Shown piece by piece: positions 9,301 to 63,513 of a stretch of DNA of 64,000 nt. The position numbers and the translations under genes are program-made. Every line of letters starts with the position of its first letter. The stretch's first letter is position 1. The stretch lies in IMG/VR virus record IMGVR_UViG_3300032007_000015. The stretch is one strand, 5' to 3'. Source of the stretch: a virus (taxonomy: Duplodnaviria > Caudoviricetes). The notes beneath the pieces are model-generated. The model did no database searches. It saw nothing but the letters and a program-made list of their open reading frames with translations, and was not told where the DNA came from.

Positions 9301-9326
9301 GCTCGGTTTAATGTCATGAGCTGGAC
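9301..9326 (-). ncRNA. Compact H-type pseudoknot motif, copy A
   Basis: GTC-CA-GCTC-AT-GAC-ATTAAAC-C-GAGC; covaries with copies at 15368, 48630, 63893. Confidence 0.65.
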
Positions 9327-14738: not shown

Positions 14739-14866
14739 ACTTTTAGTTCTCCTTTCGTATTTATTTTATTCGATTTAACTATTTGTTTTTAAGTAAATTA
14801 AATAAAAAAGAACGAATATAGAAATTTTATATTCGTTCTTTTTAATTAAGTTATGAAAGAATCAGA

Positions 14867-15064
14867 TTATTCATCTGATTCCTCTTCTTCGAAGTCCTCC
14901 AATTCTTCCATAACTTTTTCTTTCACTGCTGCAGTAGTGATTTTCTTTTTTATTTTTTTTACAGGTCTATCAAGAAACCTGTATGTTTCGACTCCTGCTG
15001 TAACTCCTGCAACGACACCGACAATGATGTGTCGGATTTCAATTTTGCTTATAAGTATTCTCAT
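14867..15064 (-). CDS. Small membrane-associated accessory protein
   Basis: 65 aa, hydrophobic segment, basic then acidic tail; AAAGGGGG RBS. Confidence 0.65.
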   Translation of the reverse strand: MRILISKIEIRHIIVGVVAGVTAGVETYRFLDRPVKKIKKKITTAAVKEKVMEELEDFEEEESDE

Positions 15065-15066
15065 AA

Positions 15067-15279
15067 TTATTTACCCCCTTTCTTTTTCTTATTCCACCAA
15101 TGTTTTGGTGGTTCAGGTTCAGGAGAGACTTTGTTCTTTATACTCTTTCCTACTCTTTTGATATCTTCTTCAGCAGCTGCTGCACCACCTGCAGTTGCTT
15201 CAAATATCACCAAGCCTACTCCTAATGCTGTGGTGCCTTTTGCGAGGATTTCTAATCCTCTTTCTAATTTATTTCCCAT
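15067..15279 (-). CDS. Small membrane-associated accessory protein
   Basis: 70 aa, AAAGGAG RBS, preceded by conserved structured leader. Confidence 0.7.
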   Translation of the reverse strand: MGNKLERGLEILAKGTTALGVGLVIFEATAGGAAAAEEDIKRVGKSIKNKVSPEPEPPKHWWNKKKKGGK

Positions 15280-15351
15280 ATTAACTCCTTTCCCAACTAA
15301 TCATATGGAAATTAGTTGACGTAATTTTATTTTTTGGAAATTACGAAACCA
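15274..15351 (-). promoter_or_regulatory. Tandem-pseudoknot 5' leader RNA, copy 1
   Basis: TGG TTT CGTAAT TT CCA AAAAATAAA ATTACG T CAACTAAT TTCCATATG ATTAGTTG GGAAAGGAGTTAAT ATG. Confidence 0.7.
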
Positions 15352-15367: not shown

Positions 15368-15394
15368 TCTCGGTTTATTGTCATGAGCTGGACA
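15368..15394 (-). ncRNA. Compact pseudoknot motif, copy B
   Basis: TGTC-CA-GCTC-AT-GACA-ATAAAC-C-GAGA. Confidence 0.6.
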
Positions 15395-15524: not shown

Positions 15525-16694
15525 TTAATCTTTATAAATAAATGCTTTAAATGTATCAATGGCTCTTCCATATATACCAGCATAATCACTATCATCAACG
15601 ACCCATCCTAAATACTTGTCGGAACCTACTAATGATGCACTATATTTTACATGATATCCTGGCATATTAACAAGTCTACATTTAATACCATCTATCTTTC
15701 TACCAGAAATTCCAGCATAATCATTTAAATCAGTAACCCAAGGTAACCAAGATCCACCTATAGTATGAACTTGATACTGGATATGACCTGAAGATAAATG
15801 CATCTGTAATTCATCGATTGGTATATTTCTTGAACCTGCAAATCCATTTGCGTTTACATCGTTATAATTAGTTACTTCTGAATACCATTTCTTAGTATTA
15901 GCATTTCTAACACGATATATTACATTAGGCACACCATTTGATTTATTACTTGATGAAGATGGTGTCCAATTACCACGAATATCTCCATCATTACAATATG
16001 TGTTATATCCTTGTAAATGATATGGATTCTTACCTTCAACTATTTTATCAATAATAGCATTAATCCAAGGACTGCATCCCATAGCAGATGAATTTGGATC
16101 TGTAGGTCCTTTATAATGTGTTGAAACTGTTACACGTTCACCAACCTTATGAGCATGTGATGTTGTTTGTGTATTAGTTGCTTTATTTGAAGAGATCTCC
16201 GATTTGAATCTTAACCAAATTGAGTTATTGCTATTATTAGCACCCCAACCTGTCCATCCTGGACAAATCTTTCCGCAAACATCATAATGTCTAACAACAT
16301 TGCCTGCTGGAATATTATACTTTGCCATTAAGATTTTTGTAAGCTCTACAGTATTTTTGAATGTTGCTTCAGAAACAGCACCATTTGTTCCACACATTTC
16401 AATACCAATAGAATTATTATTTGTACATTTACCCCATAAAGGAGCAGTACCATGTGAATAATCTACACCACAATGTCCAGCACGGTCTGTATCTTTTACA
16501 CATTGAACAGCACCAGTTCCATCAACAAACCAATTGGCAGATGCGTTTCTATTAACATTTTCAAAATATTTACAATTATTAATAGCTGTATCTGTTCTGT
16601 TTGCTGTATAATGAATTACAATATATTCATTCTTTTTATTTGTCATTGGTGTATAGTTGACTTTAGTAAGTCTTGTACTAATATTAAGTGACAT
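15525..16694 (-). CDS. N-acetylmuramoyl-L-alanine amidase (Amidase_2) endolysin with clostridial W-type cell-wall-binding repeats
   Basis: YIVIHYTAN, ASANWFVD, NNNSIGIEMC, VVRHYDVCGKICPG; three C-terminal Y.V.....W..WV....DYAG..G..ID-type repeats. Confidence 0.9.
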   Translation of the reverse strand: MSLNISTRLTKVNYTPMTNKKNEYIVIHYTANRTDTAINNCKYFENVNRNASANWFVDGTGAVQCVKDTDRAGHCGVDYSHGTAPLWGKCTNNNSIGIEMCGTNGAVSEATFKNTVELTKILMAKYNIPAGNVVRHYDVCGKICPGWTGWGANNSNNSIWLRFKSEISSNKATNTQTTSHAHKVGERVTVSTHYKGPTDPNSSAMGCSPWINAIIDKIVEGKNPYHLQGYNTYCNDGDIRGNWTPSSSSNKSNGVPNVIYRVRNANTKKWYSEVTNYNDVNANGFAGSRNIPIDELQMHLSSGHIQYQVHTIGGSWLPWVTDLNDYAGISGRKIDGIKCRLVNMPGYHVKYSASLVGSDKYLGWVVDDSDYAGIYGRAIDTFKAFIYKD

Positions 16695-16790
16695 AATAAT
16701 TACCACCTTTCTTTATTATTTTAAAGTATAGTTAAAATAATAAAGAAAAAAAAGATGGATAAATTAAAATAACTTATCCATCTTTTGTAA

Positions 16791-30206: not shown

Positions 30207-32087
30207 TTATCCTAGCCTTTTCTTTAATTTAGAATACATTTTTTTGACATTTGGTAAATTCATAAATTTATATGCAGTAGTTATATAATTACCGGTTTGA
30301 AAATTATCTATAACTTCACCGGCAATATCATCTGTAAAACTATCAGAATTTTCAGGTACAATTTGTACATCTGTTATACCGTGATATGGTATATTTCCTC
30401 CTCTAACATCATATTGAGCACTATCTAATATCATTTTAAATATTAAAGTAGAATCATCAATATTAAGAACACGAATTGTTGAAGGATAGAAAGCTGACAT
30501 ATCCATATCTATTGAAAATAAAAAAACTTTATTTGTTTTCTTATTATACATTATAATACCAAACGGTGTAATTAATAATGGATTCCCAACTAATGCTCCT
30601 TCATATAAAGAATCATCACTATCAGAATCTTCATCATTTTCCATTGCTTTTTCTTGTATTCTATCATATGCTAAAATACCGTTTATATTAGCACCCGGAA
30701 CGATATTTTGCTTCATAAAATATTTATATTCTACGTTTCTAAGTACAACTGTTTGTTTAAATACATTTTCATACTGAGTGATATTTTGATATGATTTAAA
30801 GTATAATGTATCTATATCATTGGTATTATCTTCAATTCCATATTGAAGCAAAACGTCCTTTATATTATAAATAAAATAATTACGGTAATTTGTATAGCCA
30901 ATTGTTTTGATGTCTCCATCTTCACTATAATCTAATTTTTCATCACCAATTTCTCTTTTAGCAATATAATTTAATTTATTAGAACGTAATTCAGAACGTC
31001 CTTTTCTTATTGCTGCGTACAATATCATTTGATCGTAAAATATAGTATATGATGAGCAATGAAAAAAATCTGCTTTATTTTTTACTTCAAAATTTCTTGT
31101 ATCTTTTTTAAAATAACATTCTTTAGTAGGAAAATCTGGATGGCACATAACTTCTTTCGGGTCTATCCCTAATGCAACTAGCCTATCATAAATATAAGGG
31201 ATATCGAATGATGCGGTCCAAATCATCATAAAATCTCTCTTTAATGTATTAATAAGTGAAAATAATCTAATTAACATAGTTGCTTCATCAGTATAAAAAT
31301 AAAAATTATAATCAAATTTTCCATAAGTTTCATCAAATAATGAATGTAACTCCTCTTGTAACCCATCCAAATCATTCATTAATGCTTTTTCTTGTTCAAG
31401 ACGTGACTGATACATTTCTCGTCGTTTCATTTCTTCTTTTATTTTTTTATCTCTTGCTGGTCCGTGAAACATAGATATATCTTTCTCAACACATTCTCTA
31501 CCAACTAATGCAAATGTATACGATTTCTTTTCAAATCCATCAATAACTGTAACTAAGTCTATTGGACAAGATGACGCAGATGCAAAACCTTTAACTTCAA
31601 ATGAATCAGCTTCTATATCCATAAATGCCTTAGTTAATGTAACCGATTTTGGAGATTTAACATCACGCTGCCAAGCATATCTATACCAAACCCTTACATC
31701 ATAATCACTACCAAATACATATGGGTATGTATGTATTTTATTTATGTCTTTGTAATTATGGGTATCGAATATATTATTTAAGAATCTTTTTCCACTTTCT
31801 CCTGATTTTTCTGCTATTACATACGGTATATCAGAATATTTACACGTTACTTTTTCTAATTTTTCTAATTCTCTATATTTTAAATTATAAGTATGATCTC
31901 TAAATTCTTCTTTTTCAAAATATATGTCCATTAAAGGTTCTGGAATTATATTCATATATTTCTCATTTGTTAATGAATCTTTCCATATGACATATATATA
32001 GTCTGGCTTTTTTTCTTTTTTATTTCCTCGAACATACTGAACATCTATCAATATTCCGTGTTCAGTATCAATTTTTTTACTTGCCAT
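30207..32087 (-). CDS. polB: Family B DNA polymerase, N-terminal subunit (3'-5' exonuclease + motif A)
   Basis: MDIEAD (ExoI), SFDIPYIYDR (ExoII), YNIKDV (ExoIII), YEGALV, DMSAFYPS (motif A); no motif B/C. Confidence 0.9.
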   Translation of the reverse strand: MASKKIDTEHGILIDVQYVRGNKKEKKPDYIYVIWKDSLTNEKYMNIIPEPLMDIYFEKEEFRDHTYNLKYRELEKLEKVTCKYSDIPYVIAEKSGESGKRFLNNIFDTHNYKDINKIHTYPYVFGSDYDVRVWYRYAWQRDVKSPKSVTLTKAFMDIEADSFEVKGFASASSCPIDLVTVIDGFEKKSYTFALVGRECVEKDISMFHGPARDKKIKEEMKRREMYQSRLEQEKALMNDLDGLQEELHSLFDETYGKFDYNFYFYTDEATMLIRLFSLINTLKRDFMMIWTASFDIPYIYDRLVALGIDPKEVMCHPDFPTKECYFKKDTRNFEVKNKADFFHCSSYTIFYDQMILYAAIRKGRSELRSNKLNYIAKREIGDEKLDYSEDGDIKTIGYTNYRNYFIYNIKDVLLQYGIEDNTNDIDTLYFKSYQNITQYENVFKQTVVLRNVEYKYFMKQNIVPGANINGILAYDRIQEKAMENDEDSDSDDSLYEGALVGNPLLITPFGIIMYNKKTNKVFLFSIDMDMSAFYPSTIRVLNIDDSTLIFKMILDSAQYDVRGGNIPYHGITDVQIVPENSDSFTDDIAGEVIDNFQTGNYITTAYKFMNLPNVKKMYSKLKKRLG

Positions 32088-32133: not shown

Positions 32134-32166
32134 TCATAGAATCTGATATATTTAACAAAAAAATAA
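32134..32166 (+). repeat. 33-bp direct repeat, left copy
   Basis: tcatagaatctgatatatttaacaaaaaaataa; 32/33 identical to 32697-32729. Confidence 0.9.
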
Positions 32167-32201
32167 GTAGGCTTCTTAAAATCTAAGAAGCCTACTTATT
32201 T
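32161..32201. terminator. Terminator hairpin of the accessory cassette
   Basis: aaataagtaggcttctta / taagaagcctacttattt. Confidence 0.8.
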
Positions 32202-32204
32202 GAT

Positions 32205-32540
32205 TTAGATAAGAAGAACAACATGAATGCTTCTCTTATCTAAATCGAACCCATCTCTGACATCGTACCCATATGTACTATGGGTACTGTCAACATGACA
32301 AATATGTTCATATTTGTCAATCTCTTTATACTGGTCTTCAGTGCAGACCAGTACGTTTGCATGATTGTCCGTGATTGGGACAATCTCAACACTTGGTAAA
32401 TAGCCAGGGTTGCCGATCGTAATACGGTAACCAATCTCTGGCTCGTATCCAGTAAGACACTCTTCGAGTGCCTTATCATAATTTTTATTCGTATTGCAGA
32501 CGGATTTTACACCGTCTATAAAATATTTATTATTTTCCAT
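32205..32540 (-). CDS. Accessory hypothetical protein (start MENNKY)
   Basis: AAAGGAG RBS; visibly higher GC than flanks; structured leader. Confidence 0.75.
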   Translation of the reverse strand: MENNKYFIDGVKSVCNTNKNYDKALEECLTGYEPEIGYRITIGNPGYLPSVEIVPITDNHANVLVCTEDQYKEIDKYEHICHVDSTHSTYGYDVRDGFDLDKRSIHVVLLI

Positions 32541-32611
32541 ATTAACTCCTTTCCCTACTAGCATATGGAACTAGTAGACGTAGTTTTTCAAAGGATGACT
32601 ACGGAACCTTT
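32535..32611 (-). promoter_or_regulatory. Tandem-pseudoknot 5' leader RNA, copy 2
   Basis: AAAGG TTC CGTAGT CAT CCTTT GAAAA ACTACG T CTACTAG TTCCATATG CTAGTAG GGAAAGGAGTTAAT ATGGAA. Confidence 0.75.
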
Positions 32612-32621
32612 ATATTTTTAC

Positions 32622-32665
32622 TTTATTCACAAAAATATTATATCAATATATATATAGAGTTTACG
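32622..32665 (-). promoter_or_regulatory. Early-type promoter of cassette
   Basis: CGTAAACTCTATATATATATTGATATAATATTTTTGTG, nearly identical to 49091-49134; contains TGnTATAAT. Confidence 0.65.
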
Positions 32666-32696
32666 ATTGTAATTTCTATATAATACATATATTCAT

Positions 32697-32729
32697 TCAT
32701 AGAATCTGATACATTTAACAAAAAAATAA
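32697..32729 (+). repeat. 33-bp direct repeat, right copy (contains AACA-N6-TA promoter)
   Basis: tcatagaatctgatacatttaacaaaaaaataa. Confidence 0.9.
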
Positions 32730-48662: not shown

Positions 48663-49004
48663 CTACTGTGGGATGTAGTCTTCTTTAATAATGTCAATTT
48701 TAAGTAGACGTTCCCACTTTACAAAGTGGAAATCTACTTTATCTTCACCTCCTTCTGGCTGTGGTATTAATACACGGTCATTTACAGCCATAATGACCGG
48801 TTTATTTCCTGCAATCTTCAGGAACTGAGCCTGAAGATTTATTGGTGCGACTATCGCAATGATGTCGCACTCATTAATTTCGTCTGCGATTTCATATGCT
48901 GATGAGATTGTCTTGTTGATGTTGACAATTTCAACGTTATTGCCGAGAGCAGCAAGCTGCTCTTCAGTCATCTCGTGTCTTGAAAACCATAATATTTTTT
49001 TCAT
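48663..49004 (-). CDS. Small Rossmann-like protein resembling Csx16/Csx20 ring-nuclease family
   Basis: KILWFSRHEMTEEQL, DIIAIVAPINLQAQFL; AAAGGAG RBS; higher GC cassette. Confidence 0.45.
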   Translation of the reverse strand: MKKILWFSRHEMTEEQLAALGNNVEIVNINKTISSAYEIADEINECDIIAIVAPINLQAQFLKIAGNKPVIMAVNDRVLIPQPEGGEDKVDFHFVKWERLLKIDIIKEDYIPQ

Positions 49005-49075
49005 GTTAACTCCTTTCCCAGTTAGACACATGAATTCTAACTGACGTGGTTTTATTTAGGATTACCACGGAACCT
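49000..49075 (-). promoter_or_regulatory. Tandem-pseudoknot 5' leader RNA, copy 3
   Basis: AGG TTC CGTGGT AAT CCT AAATAAA ACCACG T CAGTTAGA ATTCATGTG TCTAACTG GGAAAGGAGTTAAC ATGAA. Confidence 0.75.
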
Positions 49076-61413: not shown

Positions 61414-63513
61414 TTAAAACTTAATTATATTTGAAATTGTTTTTGTTTTTCTACCAGTTTTACCTTCTTGTAAATCTGGTAAATCAAATATTTCCATAAC
61501 AGATTTAAATGGTGCTAAAATTGTATTTATCATTGTAGTATAATCAATATAATCCATAGCCCATTCAGGAATCTTATCATTACTAGGAATTGCTAATACT
61601 TGTAATCCAGTAATCTTTACTTCACCTTTTTTATTACGTTTTATAAATATTCCGCTTCTATCATTAAATATACCTTCCATTATAATATTATATATATCAG
61701 GATATTTATCTTTCATAGGTTCAATATCTTCTGGAGTATTTATATTCATTTTTACCAAACTAACTTTAGCTGGGAACGAAATTTGATTATTTGGATTTGT
61801 CATATTCCAAGATAAAACTCCACGTACTGATTGATTTGTACTTGGGTCTTTATAAGCTTCTAATTCTTTAGCATTACCGTTAGGTAAATATTTTTTATCA
61901 CCATTTAATATAGATTCTTTTATTTCTTCTCTAAACTTCTTAAGTTCTAATGTAAGTTTCTTAAGATCTATTCCATCACCTACTAACAAAATATCATTAA
62001 TAAGTTTCATATAACGTTTTTCTGCAAATTCAGATGTCGTTGCTTTCTTGAAATCAAAACCTTTAACATCTGATTTACCATTCTTAATAAGGTTTCCTTC
62101 TCTAAGCATTACCTTACTTATATAACGTTTTTTGGTTTTACCAATTATTAATTTAGAAAAAAAGAATTCGTTTTTCATATTAAAACGTGGTCTCCATTTT
62201 TCCTCTACATTTGAACATTTTCCATAGTAAAGAAGAATATCTGTAACAACGTTTGTTATTACATAAGTTATTGAATTAACAGCTATAAATACATTATTAA
62301 TATGATCTCTATTATATTGACTTTCATCACCTAAAACTTCATCAAATAAGAAATTAATCCAAGTATCAAGCGATAAAATATTACTATCAGTATCAATAAC
62401 TGTAACTACTTTACGTTTAAAGTTTTTAAGTCTGTAAATCCTATCTATACTTAAATATCTAACATAAACATATTTAAGATATATATCACACATCTCTTTT
62501 ATATAACCCAATATACTCTCAGGAACATCATTAGGATCATAAAAATATTCCTTATCAACAAACTTATTCCAATCTTTCTTTTTATTTTTAGATAAAGTAA
62601 ATTTTTGTCTTAATTCTTTTGGTATAACAGAATCATCATCTTCCATATACTGATAATTATTTACATTTTTGAATATCTTTCTATGAAGTTGTTTTACTTT
62701 TTCATGTCGTCTTGTAAACTCGATAAGATTATTTTTATAAAATATTTTTGTTAATTCATCATCTGTTAAATGATGAAGATAATCATTTAATCCTTCTTCA
62801 TATGAATAATCCCAATCAAGAACCATATGTTTTATTCTATCATAAACTTCATCAAATGTTGCTGGAATAACCCAATCATCTATTGTATTATCTGATTCAT
62901 TTAATATACATTCCATCCAATGATAACATTCATTAATATCTATAAATACATAATTATCAGATAAAAATGCTTCAAATGTTTGTTCAGTTGTAGAAATAAC
63001 TGATTGTGCACTCAATGTAGTTGATGTTGCTGTCCAAAGATTAAAGAAAGCAGATGTCTGAGCTCCAGATGAACCATAATATGAATTCATTAATACTTTT
63101 TGATTTCCTTGGTCTAAATCTAAATGTGCATATTCCTTACTATATATGTCATCTATATTAAACATTTCTTTTTTTATAGCTTTTCTACCATAAAACCAAT
63201 CATCTAACATATCAGCAATTGGATTTTTAGAATCTTCATGTCGTTTAAAAAATGTTCCATTACCTGCAATTATTGGTTTACTATCAATAGCCCAATCAAG
63301 TACAGATAATAAACTACTATTTGTATGTTCTTTTGTATAGTTATTATCTAATTCCACTTCTGGAATCATTATATCTTTTTTTATTATTTTTTTCATTTCA
63401 TCCTGAACATCATCTTCATTCCATTCAGGATTCATTTTTATCATTATATTTGTCATTTCATCCATATATGATTGTAAAAAGCTACTAGCTTCTATATTTA
63501 ATTCTTTATTCAT
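61414..63513 (-). CDS. polB: Family B DNA polymerase, C-terminal subunit (motifs B and C, thumb)
   Basis: GNGTFF, RKAIKKEM, QKVLMNSYYG, VIDTDS, KKRY, VKGFDF. Confidence 0.9.
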   Translation of the reverse strand: MNKELNIEASSFLQSYMDEMTNIMIKMNPEWNEDDVQDEMKKIIKKDIMIPEVELDNNYTKEHTNSSLLSVLDWAIDSKPIIAGNGTFFKRHEDSKNPIADMLDDWFYGRKAIKKEMFNIDDIYSKEYAHLDLDQGNQKVLMNSYYGSSGAQTSAFFNLWTATSTTLSAQSVISTTEQTFEAFLSDNYVFIDINECYHWMECILNESDNTIDDWVIPATFDEVYDRIKHMVLDWDYSYEEGLNDYLHHLTDDELTKIFYKNNLIEFTRRHEKVKQLHRKIFKNVNNYQYMEDDDSVIPKELRQKFTLSKNKKKDWNKFVDKEYFYDPNDVPESILGYIKEMCDIYLKYVYVRYLSIDRIYRLKNFKRKVVTVIDTDSNILSLDTWINFLFDEVLGDESQYNRDHINNVFIAVNSITYVITNVVTDILLYYGKCSNVEEKWRPRFNMKNEFFFSKLIIGKTKKRYISKVMLREGNLIKNGKSDVKGFDFKKATTSEFAEKRYMKLINDILLVGDGIDLKKLTLELKKFREEIKESILNGDKKYLPNGNAKELEAYKDPSTNQSVRGVLSWNMTNPNNQISFPAKVSLVKMNINTPEDIEPMKDKYPDIYNIIMEGIFNDRSGIFIKRNKKGEVKITGLQVLAIPSNDKIPEWAMDYIDYTTMINTILAPFKSVMEIFDLPDLQEGKTGRKTKTISNIIKF

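Follow-up and report, generated by a model that had tools for sequence, protein, structure and literature searches.

A recurrent tandem-pseudoknot leader RNA, predicted to pair with its own start codon, in jumbo phages of the animal gut

A folded leader before small orphan genes

The 64,000-nucleotide stretch of viral DNA analysed here (the window) is part of IMG/VR record IMGVR_UViG_3300032007_000015, a 158-kb record estimated to be 66% complete. On its minus strand it carries three copies of a folded RNA leader of ~75 bases, at 15274–15351 (copy A), 32535–32611 (the middle copy, or copy B) and 49000–49075 (copy C), each at the head of a small open reading frame (ORF). The middle copy leads into a 111-residue ORF at 32205–32540 (minus strand), for which we found no Pfam or PHROG family and, among 5.8 billion proteins, no homologue except itself. 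A preliminary description made from the letters alone had placed the three leaders at these positions, and reading of the minus strand confirmed all of their helices as written. The leader represents an uncatalogued RNA family built on known principles.

All three copies share one layout. A short helix (NGG/CCN) is arranged around UU(C/U), CGURRU as the 5′ strand of stem a, and a segment of one to three bases with U at its end; beyond it, an A-rich stretch leads to the 3′ strand of stem a (AYYACG) and a single U, and a hairpin of 7–8 bp (stem b) with a 9-nucleotide loop is followed by GGGAAAGGAGUUAAY and the AUG. In the predicted fold, these parts would form two H-type pseudoknots set one nucleotide apart. 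The first, PK1, would consist of the short GG/CC helix, the 6–7 bp stem a and an A-rich third loop. The second, PK2, would consist of stem b and its 9–10 nucleotide loop, which contains CAU and would form 6–9 bp with the start codon of the gene behind it and the bases on either side, leaving a very strong Shine-Dalgarno sequence (SD) unpaired in a connecting loop of 12–13 nucleotides.

In the middle copy, the interval 32611–32535 begins precisely at the opening base of the 5′ helix and stops at the final base of the start-region strand. Its PK1 (32579–32611, minus strand) is predicted to fold from two helices, P1 (AAAGG 32611–32607 with CCTTT 32594–32590) and stem a (CGTAGT 32603–32598 with ACTACG 32584–32579), connected by the loops L1 (TTC), L2 (CAT) and the A-rich L3 (GAAAA). 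The stem b hairpin (32555–32577, CTACTAG/CTAGTAG) presents the 9-nucleotide loop TTCCATATG at 32570–32562. The single-stranded linker GGAAAGGAGTTA with the SD (32543–32554) forms the third loop of PK2, and the start region ATATGGAA (32535–32542, with the ATG at 32540–32538) matches TTCCATAT of the loop in eight Watson-Crick pairs, a run that shuffled loops reached in 46 of 20,000 trials. Copy A has TGG/CCA as its 5′ helix, CGTAAT(T)/(A)ATTACG as stem a, CAACTAAT/ATTAGTTG as stem b and the same loop TTCCATATG, in which TTCCATAT faces ATATGGGA with one G-U pair (ATG 15279–15277). Copy C has AGG/CCT, CGTGGT/ACCACG and CAGTTAGA/TCTAACTG in the corresponding places, and its loop ATTCATGTG offers TTCATGT to ACATGAA (ATG 49004–49002).

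The tail common to the copies, GGAAAGGAGTTAAYATG, occurs exactly three times in the window against an expectation of 0.02. Across copies the SD linker GGAAAGGAGTTA is invariant, except that one copy has a single base inserted and the relative L066 has another spacer. In another relative (L082:4735–4775) the linker holds a 15-nucleotide tandem duplication, GTTGGGAAAGGAGTT being present twice between stem b and the ATG, which gives two SDs and a long pseudoknot loop; this may be a natural variant or an assembly artefact.

Covariation of the helices and pairing with the start codon

Pairing was counted in an alignment (A2) of 11 distinct sequences for the full structure including its pseudoknots, and pairing partners slid by 1–3 columns served as the control. 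In the written structure 92% of cells were paired, against 30–45% with slid partners; 13 pairs were changed on both sides, and the observed covariation score was reached by no shuffle. Stem a (6–7 bp) was paired in 100% of cells, with two pairs changed on both sides and one G-U variant, and stem b (7–8 bp) in 98%, with six of its eight pairs changed on both sides across five sequence versions. The helix between the loop and the start region was paired in 93% of cells and had three pairs changed on both sides. For the 5′ GG/CC helix the figure was 73%: three base pairs are solid, GG/CC is invariant, and copy A carries an A-U to U-A swap. The 3′ strand of this helix, UCC(U), can alternatively pair with the real SD. 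The preliminary description held that every helix covaries, which is borne out for stem a, stem b and the loop–start helix, but only weakly for the 5′ helix.

Of the claims in that description, the most unusual is that the stem b loop pairs with the start codon of its own gene; this is also the best-supported new point, and on sequence comparison it is upheld. Loop and start region change together in three versions (v1, v2 and v3) and in the more distant relative L070. In v1, UUCCAUAU is matched to AUAUGGAA, with one G-U pair in copy A; in v2, UUCAUGU is matched to ACAUGAA. Version v3 comes from the relative L066, where it occupies the orthologous position to that of the sixth copy in the record; it has a different stem b and the spacer GGAAAAGCU in place of GGAGUUAAC, and its loop UUUUCAUAG can pair over nine bases with CUAUGAAAA, so that spacer, start context and loop are all altered together. 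The relatives L080 and L081 carry an extra U in the loop, which lengthens the loop–start helix to nine pairs. L070, whose endolysin is 77% identical and whose orthologue of the 70-residue ORF behind copy A is 51% identical, is without PK1 and retains the hairpin directly before the SD, with the loop UUCCCA opposite UGGGAA of the start.

Shuffled loops matched the observed pairing run in 0.1–2.4% of trials, and in the equivalent 11-nucleotide window of 148 other genes at least seven Watson-Crick pairs over the start codon were found in one only. Cognate combinations of loop and start region outscored non-cognate ones. The isolated loop–start duplexes have predicted energies of −7.6 to −9.2 kcal/mol. 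Taken together, the predicted fold agrees with the earlier proposal that the AUG lies in a second pseudoknot with the SD unpaired in its connecting loop, and the pairing is conserved by covariation. An upstream ORF starting from the AUG inside the loop was considered and rejected; its frame differs among copies, and the v3 loop of L066 has no AUG.

Cassettes, genome and distribution

Six copies of the leader are present in the 158-kb record, heading ORFs of 47, 61, 70, 111, 113 and 130 residues, and at least nine further copies lie on related gut-metagenome contigs. A covariance model built from the six copies detected orthologous leaders in ENA contigs of close relatives with E of 1e-14 to 1e-24. 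The copy A leader is kept in the orthologues L081 and L082, and the more distant orthologue L070 keeps the hairpin-plus-start pairing only. The leader-headed proteins are mutually unrelated and, except for one LysM domain, have no family assignment. Protein comparison and family searches support the preliminary statement that the leader heads unrelated accessory genes; the phage itself is a jumbo phage with a multisubunit RNA polymerase. None of these is a queuosine gene, as that description had also said; they are orphan ORFs or the LysM protein.

The middle cassette (32134–32729) is a self-contained unit of promoter box, leader, orphan ORF and terminator. A promoter-like AT-rich box (CGTAAACTCTAT...TATAATAT-N6-GAATAAA) lies at 32622–32665 on the minus strand, with a putative transcription start G near 32628, and a strong intrinsic terminator, a 19-bp stem followed by a T run, closes the cassette at 32161–32201 (minus strand). 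A conserved box of this kind lies upstream of each leader; the same box precedes the copies at 49.1 kb, at genome 28.2 kb and at 158.3 kb, as well as copies in relatives. Phage AR9 reads its early promoter, AAATATATATTAT-N6-G+1, with its virion RNA polymerase (PMC5312081), and by its shape the box before the leader is a putative AR9-like early promoter. From this promoter class and start site, as we infer them, the leaders would be early and their transcripts would begin ~20 nucleotides before PK1; the accessory-gene cassettes that carry the leader are probably early genes. The one RNA library found contained fragments of the phage and was uninformative on transcription, 5′ ends and the leader.

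Copy A is followed on the minus strand by ORFs of 70 residues (15067–15279) and 65 residues (14867–15064) and by a terminator at 14805–14843. Copy C heads a 113-residue ORF at 48663–49004 (minus strand), beyond which lies a thymidylate-synthase gene block. In the copy C orthologues L052, L053 and L059, the 131 nucleotides upstream of the ATG, comprising promoter and leader, are 95–99% identical, and the coding sequence behind them is 81–83% identical in L052 and L059 and 71% in L053, where it is called shorter. A 76% identical homologue of the 113-residue protein also occurs in an unrelated element (L054:9838–10000) beside UvrD-like helicase, YodL, ThiF and RNA-dependent RNA polymerase (RdRP)-like genes, and is preceded there by a different, GC-richer leader with evident hairpins.

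The 158-kb record carries genes for a beta-like protein of a multisubunit RNA polymerase, for a family-B DNA polymerase in split form and for a GroEL-like chaperonin, and near-identical DNA was found in cattle and pig gut metagenomes from ~15 studies; the phage is an uncultured giant (jumbo) phage of cattle and pig guts. Its closest cultured relatives are the Fusobacterium JD-Fnp phages and the AR9/PBS1/S6 group of jumbo phages, with RNA polymerase identity of only ~28–33%, and a megablast search of 6 kb of the phage sequence matched no cultured phage. An endolysin of the Amidase_2 family, a 393-residue ORF at 15525–16706 (minus strand), has its closest cellular homologues in Peptostreptococcaceae, Paraclostridium/Paeniclostridium sordellii among them, a hint that the host may be of Clostridia type. 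Two separate minus-strand ORFs of 626 and 699 residues (30207–32087 and 61414–63513) each match family-B DNA polymerase families, which suggests a split or duplicated DNA polymerase. In the relative L080 (15580–18182), a gene of the Tad8 family (anti-Thoeris type) and a tubulin (PhuZ-like) gene lie less than 8 kb from a leader-headed cassette.

The leader family is real and was found only in one narrow clade of uncultured phages. In the 64 kb of the window, Rfam 15 gave zero matches at gathering thresholds, in keeping with the earlier description of the leader as undescribed, and the best sub-threshold matches at the locus (E 0.9 to 7.6) were to unrelated families. The covariance model returned only noise (E ≥ 0.03) in 11 whole jumbo-phage records whose RNA polymerase beta protein is 45–50% identical. 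Scanned for an exact pattern of the whole leader, IMG/VR yielded no match; the same kind of scan of JGI metagenomes yielded 12, all chance matches in unrelated GC-rich DNA, and a scan for GGGAAAGGAGTTAAYATG gave five chance matches, none with the leader.

Structured elements of other kinds were noticed in this phage and in a more distant one. Just upstream of copy A, at 15368–15394 on the minus strand, stands a second compact pseudoknot module (GTC CA GCTC AT GAC, an A-rich stretch, GAGC) that is separate from the tandem leader proper. It recurs at ~9301–9326 (minus strand), where it stands alone directly before an SD, and in the relative L066 (169–257, minus strand) as a G-U variant (GUUC). 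In a more distant jumbo phage (L019 and L028; IMG/VR relative G006:198236–198655), two near-identical leaders have a hairpin, ATGTAAT and ATTACAT around the loop ATCTATATG, directly before AGTAAAGGAGG; this loop shows no complementarity to the start region. Both G006 and G008 have a promoter box of similar kind, GTAAACCTCTAT...TATAATAT-N6-GAATC.

A candidate start-codon-masking operator and its alternatives

The strong covariation of the stems, the pairing with the start region and an arrangement like that of Escherichia coli rpsO lead us to interpret the element as an operator that masks the start codon and is common to a regulon of cassettes. We give about an even chance to this model, in which the leader would act in cis on translation, masking the start codon while the ribosome-binding site lies in a pseudoknot loop. 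On the rpsO mRNA, the 30S subunit binds an SD carried on the pseudoknot loop, and S15 blocks the unfolding of that structure, a mechanism known as entrapment (PMC3985624). Like that operator, the phage leader is predicted to contain an H-type pseudoknot in which a hairpin loop pairs with the downstream start region and the SD is left unpaired on a long connecting loop, and in the phage leader this pairing is conserved by covariation. The two are unrelated in sequence. Whereas the rpsO operator serves one autoregulated gene, for which the protein ligand is known, the phage leader stands before at least six unrelated genes and has a second pseudoknot abutting the first.

Folding would follow synthesis, with PK1 forming first, then stem b, whose loop would capture the start region as it emerges. 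The geometry would be that of a classical H-type pseudoknot, with about one base crossing the deep groove of a 7-bp helix and the 12–13 nucleotide loop crossing stem b. A 30S subunit could dock on the exposed SD while the AUG is kept from the P site until the loop–start helix opens, and initiation would be throttled in this way. The knot might then be clamped or released by a factor that acts in trans and recognises bases left unpaired, and invariant, in PK1 and stem b. The probable recognition surface would be PK1 with the invariant unpaired GGUU, ACGUC and loop UUC, and such a factor would more probably be a phage or host protein than a small molecule. The whole gene set could be co-regulated in a manner comparable to the trapping of the ribosome by S15 on the rpsO pseudoknot. 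The helices, their covariation, the number of copies, their setting in cassettes and their conservation are observed; that translation is repressed, and that a trans-acting factor exists and of what kind, we infer. The preliminary description had proposed a translational switch controlled by a ligand or a protein; ligand control finds no support, and the switch itself is read from the anatomy of the leader. The SD is complementary over 8–9 nucleotides to the 3′ end of a Bacillus-type 16S rRNA.

Among phages, the leader pseudoknot of T4 gene 32 and the RegA regulon are examples of translational repression of early mRNAs at ribosome-binding regions. The present leader resembles them in being a phage 5′ leader pseudoknot and in its proposed post-transcriptional control of many early mRNAs through their ribosome-binding regions. 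It differs in that the gene 32 pseudoknot serves one gene, as a nucleation site that lies far upstream of it, and RegA binds unstructured sites. Were the operator model correct, one portable leader would set many unrelated accessory genes under common post-transcriptional control, with the leader's own loop reading the start codon much like an anticodon. It would provide a compact model of start-codon masking by a pseudoknot outside ribosomal-protein operators, an example, from AR9-like jumbo phages of animal guts, of regulatory RNA moving together with gene cassettes, and a flag for small orphan genes that the phage handles as one regulon. The reach of such a finding is limited to a narrow clade of uncultured phages.

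Several observations weigh against the operator model. The 5′ GG/CC helix is weakly supported, with three solid base pairs only. Independent events are few, amounting to about five stem b versions and four or five loop–start versions, and several of these may have been moved as blocks by recombination between copies, as in a chimeric leader described below. Counted loosely, with G-U pairs allowed and the match placed anywhere within 46 nucleotides, complementary runs of at least eight nucleotides occur in 18 of 154 genes; loose complementarity to the start region is common in this AT-rich genome, and the case therefore rests on position and covariation. RNAfold predicts a competing nested fold of −21 to −23 kcal/mol that pairs the PK1 pyrimidines with the SD and AUG and is lowest in nested energy in three copies, where it may be the ground state. 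A strong SD combined with a weak A-U helix may repress very little. Finally, no candidate regulator was found: RegA (PF01818) and CsrA (PF02599) were unmatched in the 66%-complete 158-kb record, where the RegA search is to be read alongside its lack of any match in the control genomes either.

Chance complementarity fits the unremarkable loose statistic, but the position-specific statistic and the covariation rule against it. The competing long-range fold is not conserved in the copy C type or in copy A, and is retained as a possible second state only, not as the main structure. An attenuator or terminator is dismissed because a U run follows neither stem a nor stem b.

Unlikely, but the strongest of the alternatives to the operator model, is that the leader is a 5′ module that stabilises the mRNA with little or no switching. 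A mechanically robust pseudoknot, the hairpin and a very strong SD that holds a 30S subunit would together block RNase J1, a 5′-to-3′ exonuclease, as well as RNase Y cleavage, giving long-lived early cassette mRNAs in a Firmicute-type host, and the loop–start pairing would be a secondary tuning. Bound 30S subunits do block RNase J1 on the cry3A and hbs mRNAs (PMC4113751, PMC5737220). The SD of the leader, GGAAAGGAG, is of the STAB-SD type, and like the Bacillus STAB-SD, a strong GAAAGGAG-type SD in a structured leader, it could hold 30S and block the nuclease (PMC4113751, PMC5737220). A Clostridia-type host, as the Peptostreptococcaceae homologues of the endolysin suggest, would suit this account, as would the compact pseudoknot module before other SDs of the same genome and the dispensability of PK1 in the L070 orthologue. 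Yet a STAB-SD is not a start site and needs no pairing with a start codon, whereas the SD of the leader is predicted to be functional, with the adjacent AUG masked; stabilisation leaves unexplained why the loop tracks the start-codon context through four or five versions. If the inferred transcription start is right, ~20 nucleotides of unstructured A/U-rich RNA would precede PK1, while known 5′ stabilisers act near the 5′ end. A stabilising role may coexist with the operator role.

A quite doubtful alternative to the operator model is a small-molecule riboswitch, in which PK1 would be a preQ1-I-derived aptamer with a C-to-U change that senses an adenine- or 2,6-diaminopurine-like base or a signalling nucleotide. 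PK1 stabilised by ligand would lock the anti-SD pyrimidines and, stacked on stem b, would tip the equilibrium of the start-codon pseudoknot. The layout is typical of such switches, the UCCU of P1 being an anti-SD that pairs with either the 5′ AGG or the real SD. The preliminary description likened the first half of the leader to preQ1-I, and the likeness holds in part: secondary-structure prediction gives a small pseudoknot of H type whose short P1 has GG at its end, invariant GG-UU(C/U) with UU atop P1, as in preQ1-I types I and III (PMC11625349), a second helix that the loop makes with the 3′ tail, and, lying along P1, an A-rich third loop (L3; GAAAA, AAAUAAA or AAAAAUAAA) whose tail ends in AAAACUA. 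RF00522 is also the only Rfam model that touches PK1.

Family membership does not follow, and the leader is not a member of preQ1-I. The RF00522 score is 12.9 bits against a cut-off of 39, a third of what is needed; the match is limited to the copies at genome 28.2 kb and 12.0 kb and rests on the short stem and the tail UAAAAAACUA. The window copies, A and C among them, gave no RF00522 match even at E up to 10. In preQ1-I, the C that reads the ligand belongs to a UC or AC that always stands immediately before the 3′ strand of P1 (PMC11625349). Every copy of the leader has a U there instead (AU-CC or UU-CC), as had been noticed earlier, which the riboswitch account would take as a changed specificity. 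Stem a, the counterpart of P2, has 6–7 Watson-Crick pairs rather than 3–4, so that PK1 should fold without ligand, and the SD lies ~35 nucleotides downstream, outside the aptamer and beyond another hairpin. Among copies of a single genome, L2 (CAU, AAU or U; 1–3 nucleotides) and L3 (5–9 nucleotides) vary in length and sequence to a degree that a precise ligand pocket would not tolerate. The copies, at least six in one genome, precede unrelated genes with no metabolic theme and no link to queuosine genes; QueC, TGT and PurZ were without a match in the 158-kb record (66% complete), and the L070 orthologue works without PK1. A derived ligand-gated switch, with a preQ1-I-derived PK1 that reads an adenine- or diaminopurine-like base or a nucleotide signal of the infected cell through its U, has a slighter chance still. 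It would be striking if correct, with stacking on the adjacent hairpin controlling an anticodon-like CAU loop that locks the start codon, and one metabolite controlling a phage regulon of accessory, possibly anti-defence, genes.

There is similarly little probability that the element is at heart a DNA-level recombination module, in which promoter and leader form a homology patch for the shuffling of accessory genes and the RNA folds are by-products. The precedent is the PeSL (promoter-early stem-loop) cassettes of T4-type phages, which are likewise repeated modules of early promoter plus structure that accompany the gain and loss of small orphan genes among core genes (PMC2839356, PMC4122927). 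The promoter–leader module occurs six times in the record, and the middle cassette is an insertion between direct repeats of ~33 bp (32134–32166 and 32697–32729). The relatives L062 and L063 have an empty site in its place, with 116 nucleotides and a single repeat copy between the two flanking genes (L062:17226–17341). In a pig-gut metagenome (run X4), the leader of a homologue of the 111-residue ORF joins a copy-B-type PK1 to a foreign stem b, ACTTAAC...GTTAAGT, which is that of the copies at genome 11.9 and 28.3 kb (compare window 32555–32577); leader copies thus recombine. Assemblies also break at the leader, because it is a repeat.

PeSL stem-loops, however, are transcription terminators as well as DNA homology patches, whereas stems a and b of the leader have no U run, separate terminators close the cassettes, and the leader is a 5′ structure that reaches into the start codon and covaries at the RNA level. 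A pure homology patch should stay identical; here the helices change in compensating fashion and the loop follows its own start context, which calls for selection at the level of the RNA. The middle cassette is flanked by a direct repeat distinct from the leader itself, and a role in recombination can coexist with a function of the RNA such as that of the operator. The 33-bp repeat contains an AACA-N6-TA-like motif of the neighbouring plus-strand gene, and the middle cassette is inserted immediately beside one of the two family-B DNA polymerase ORFs.

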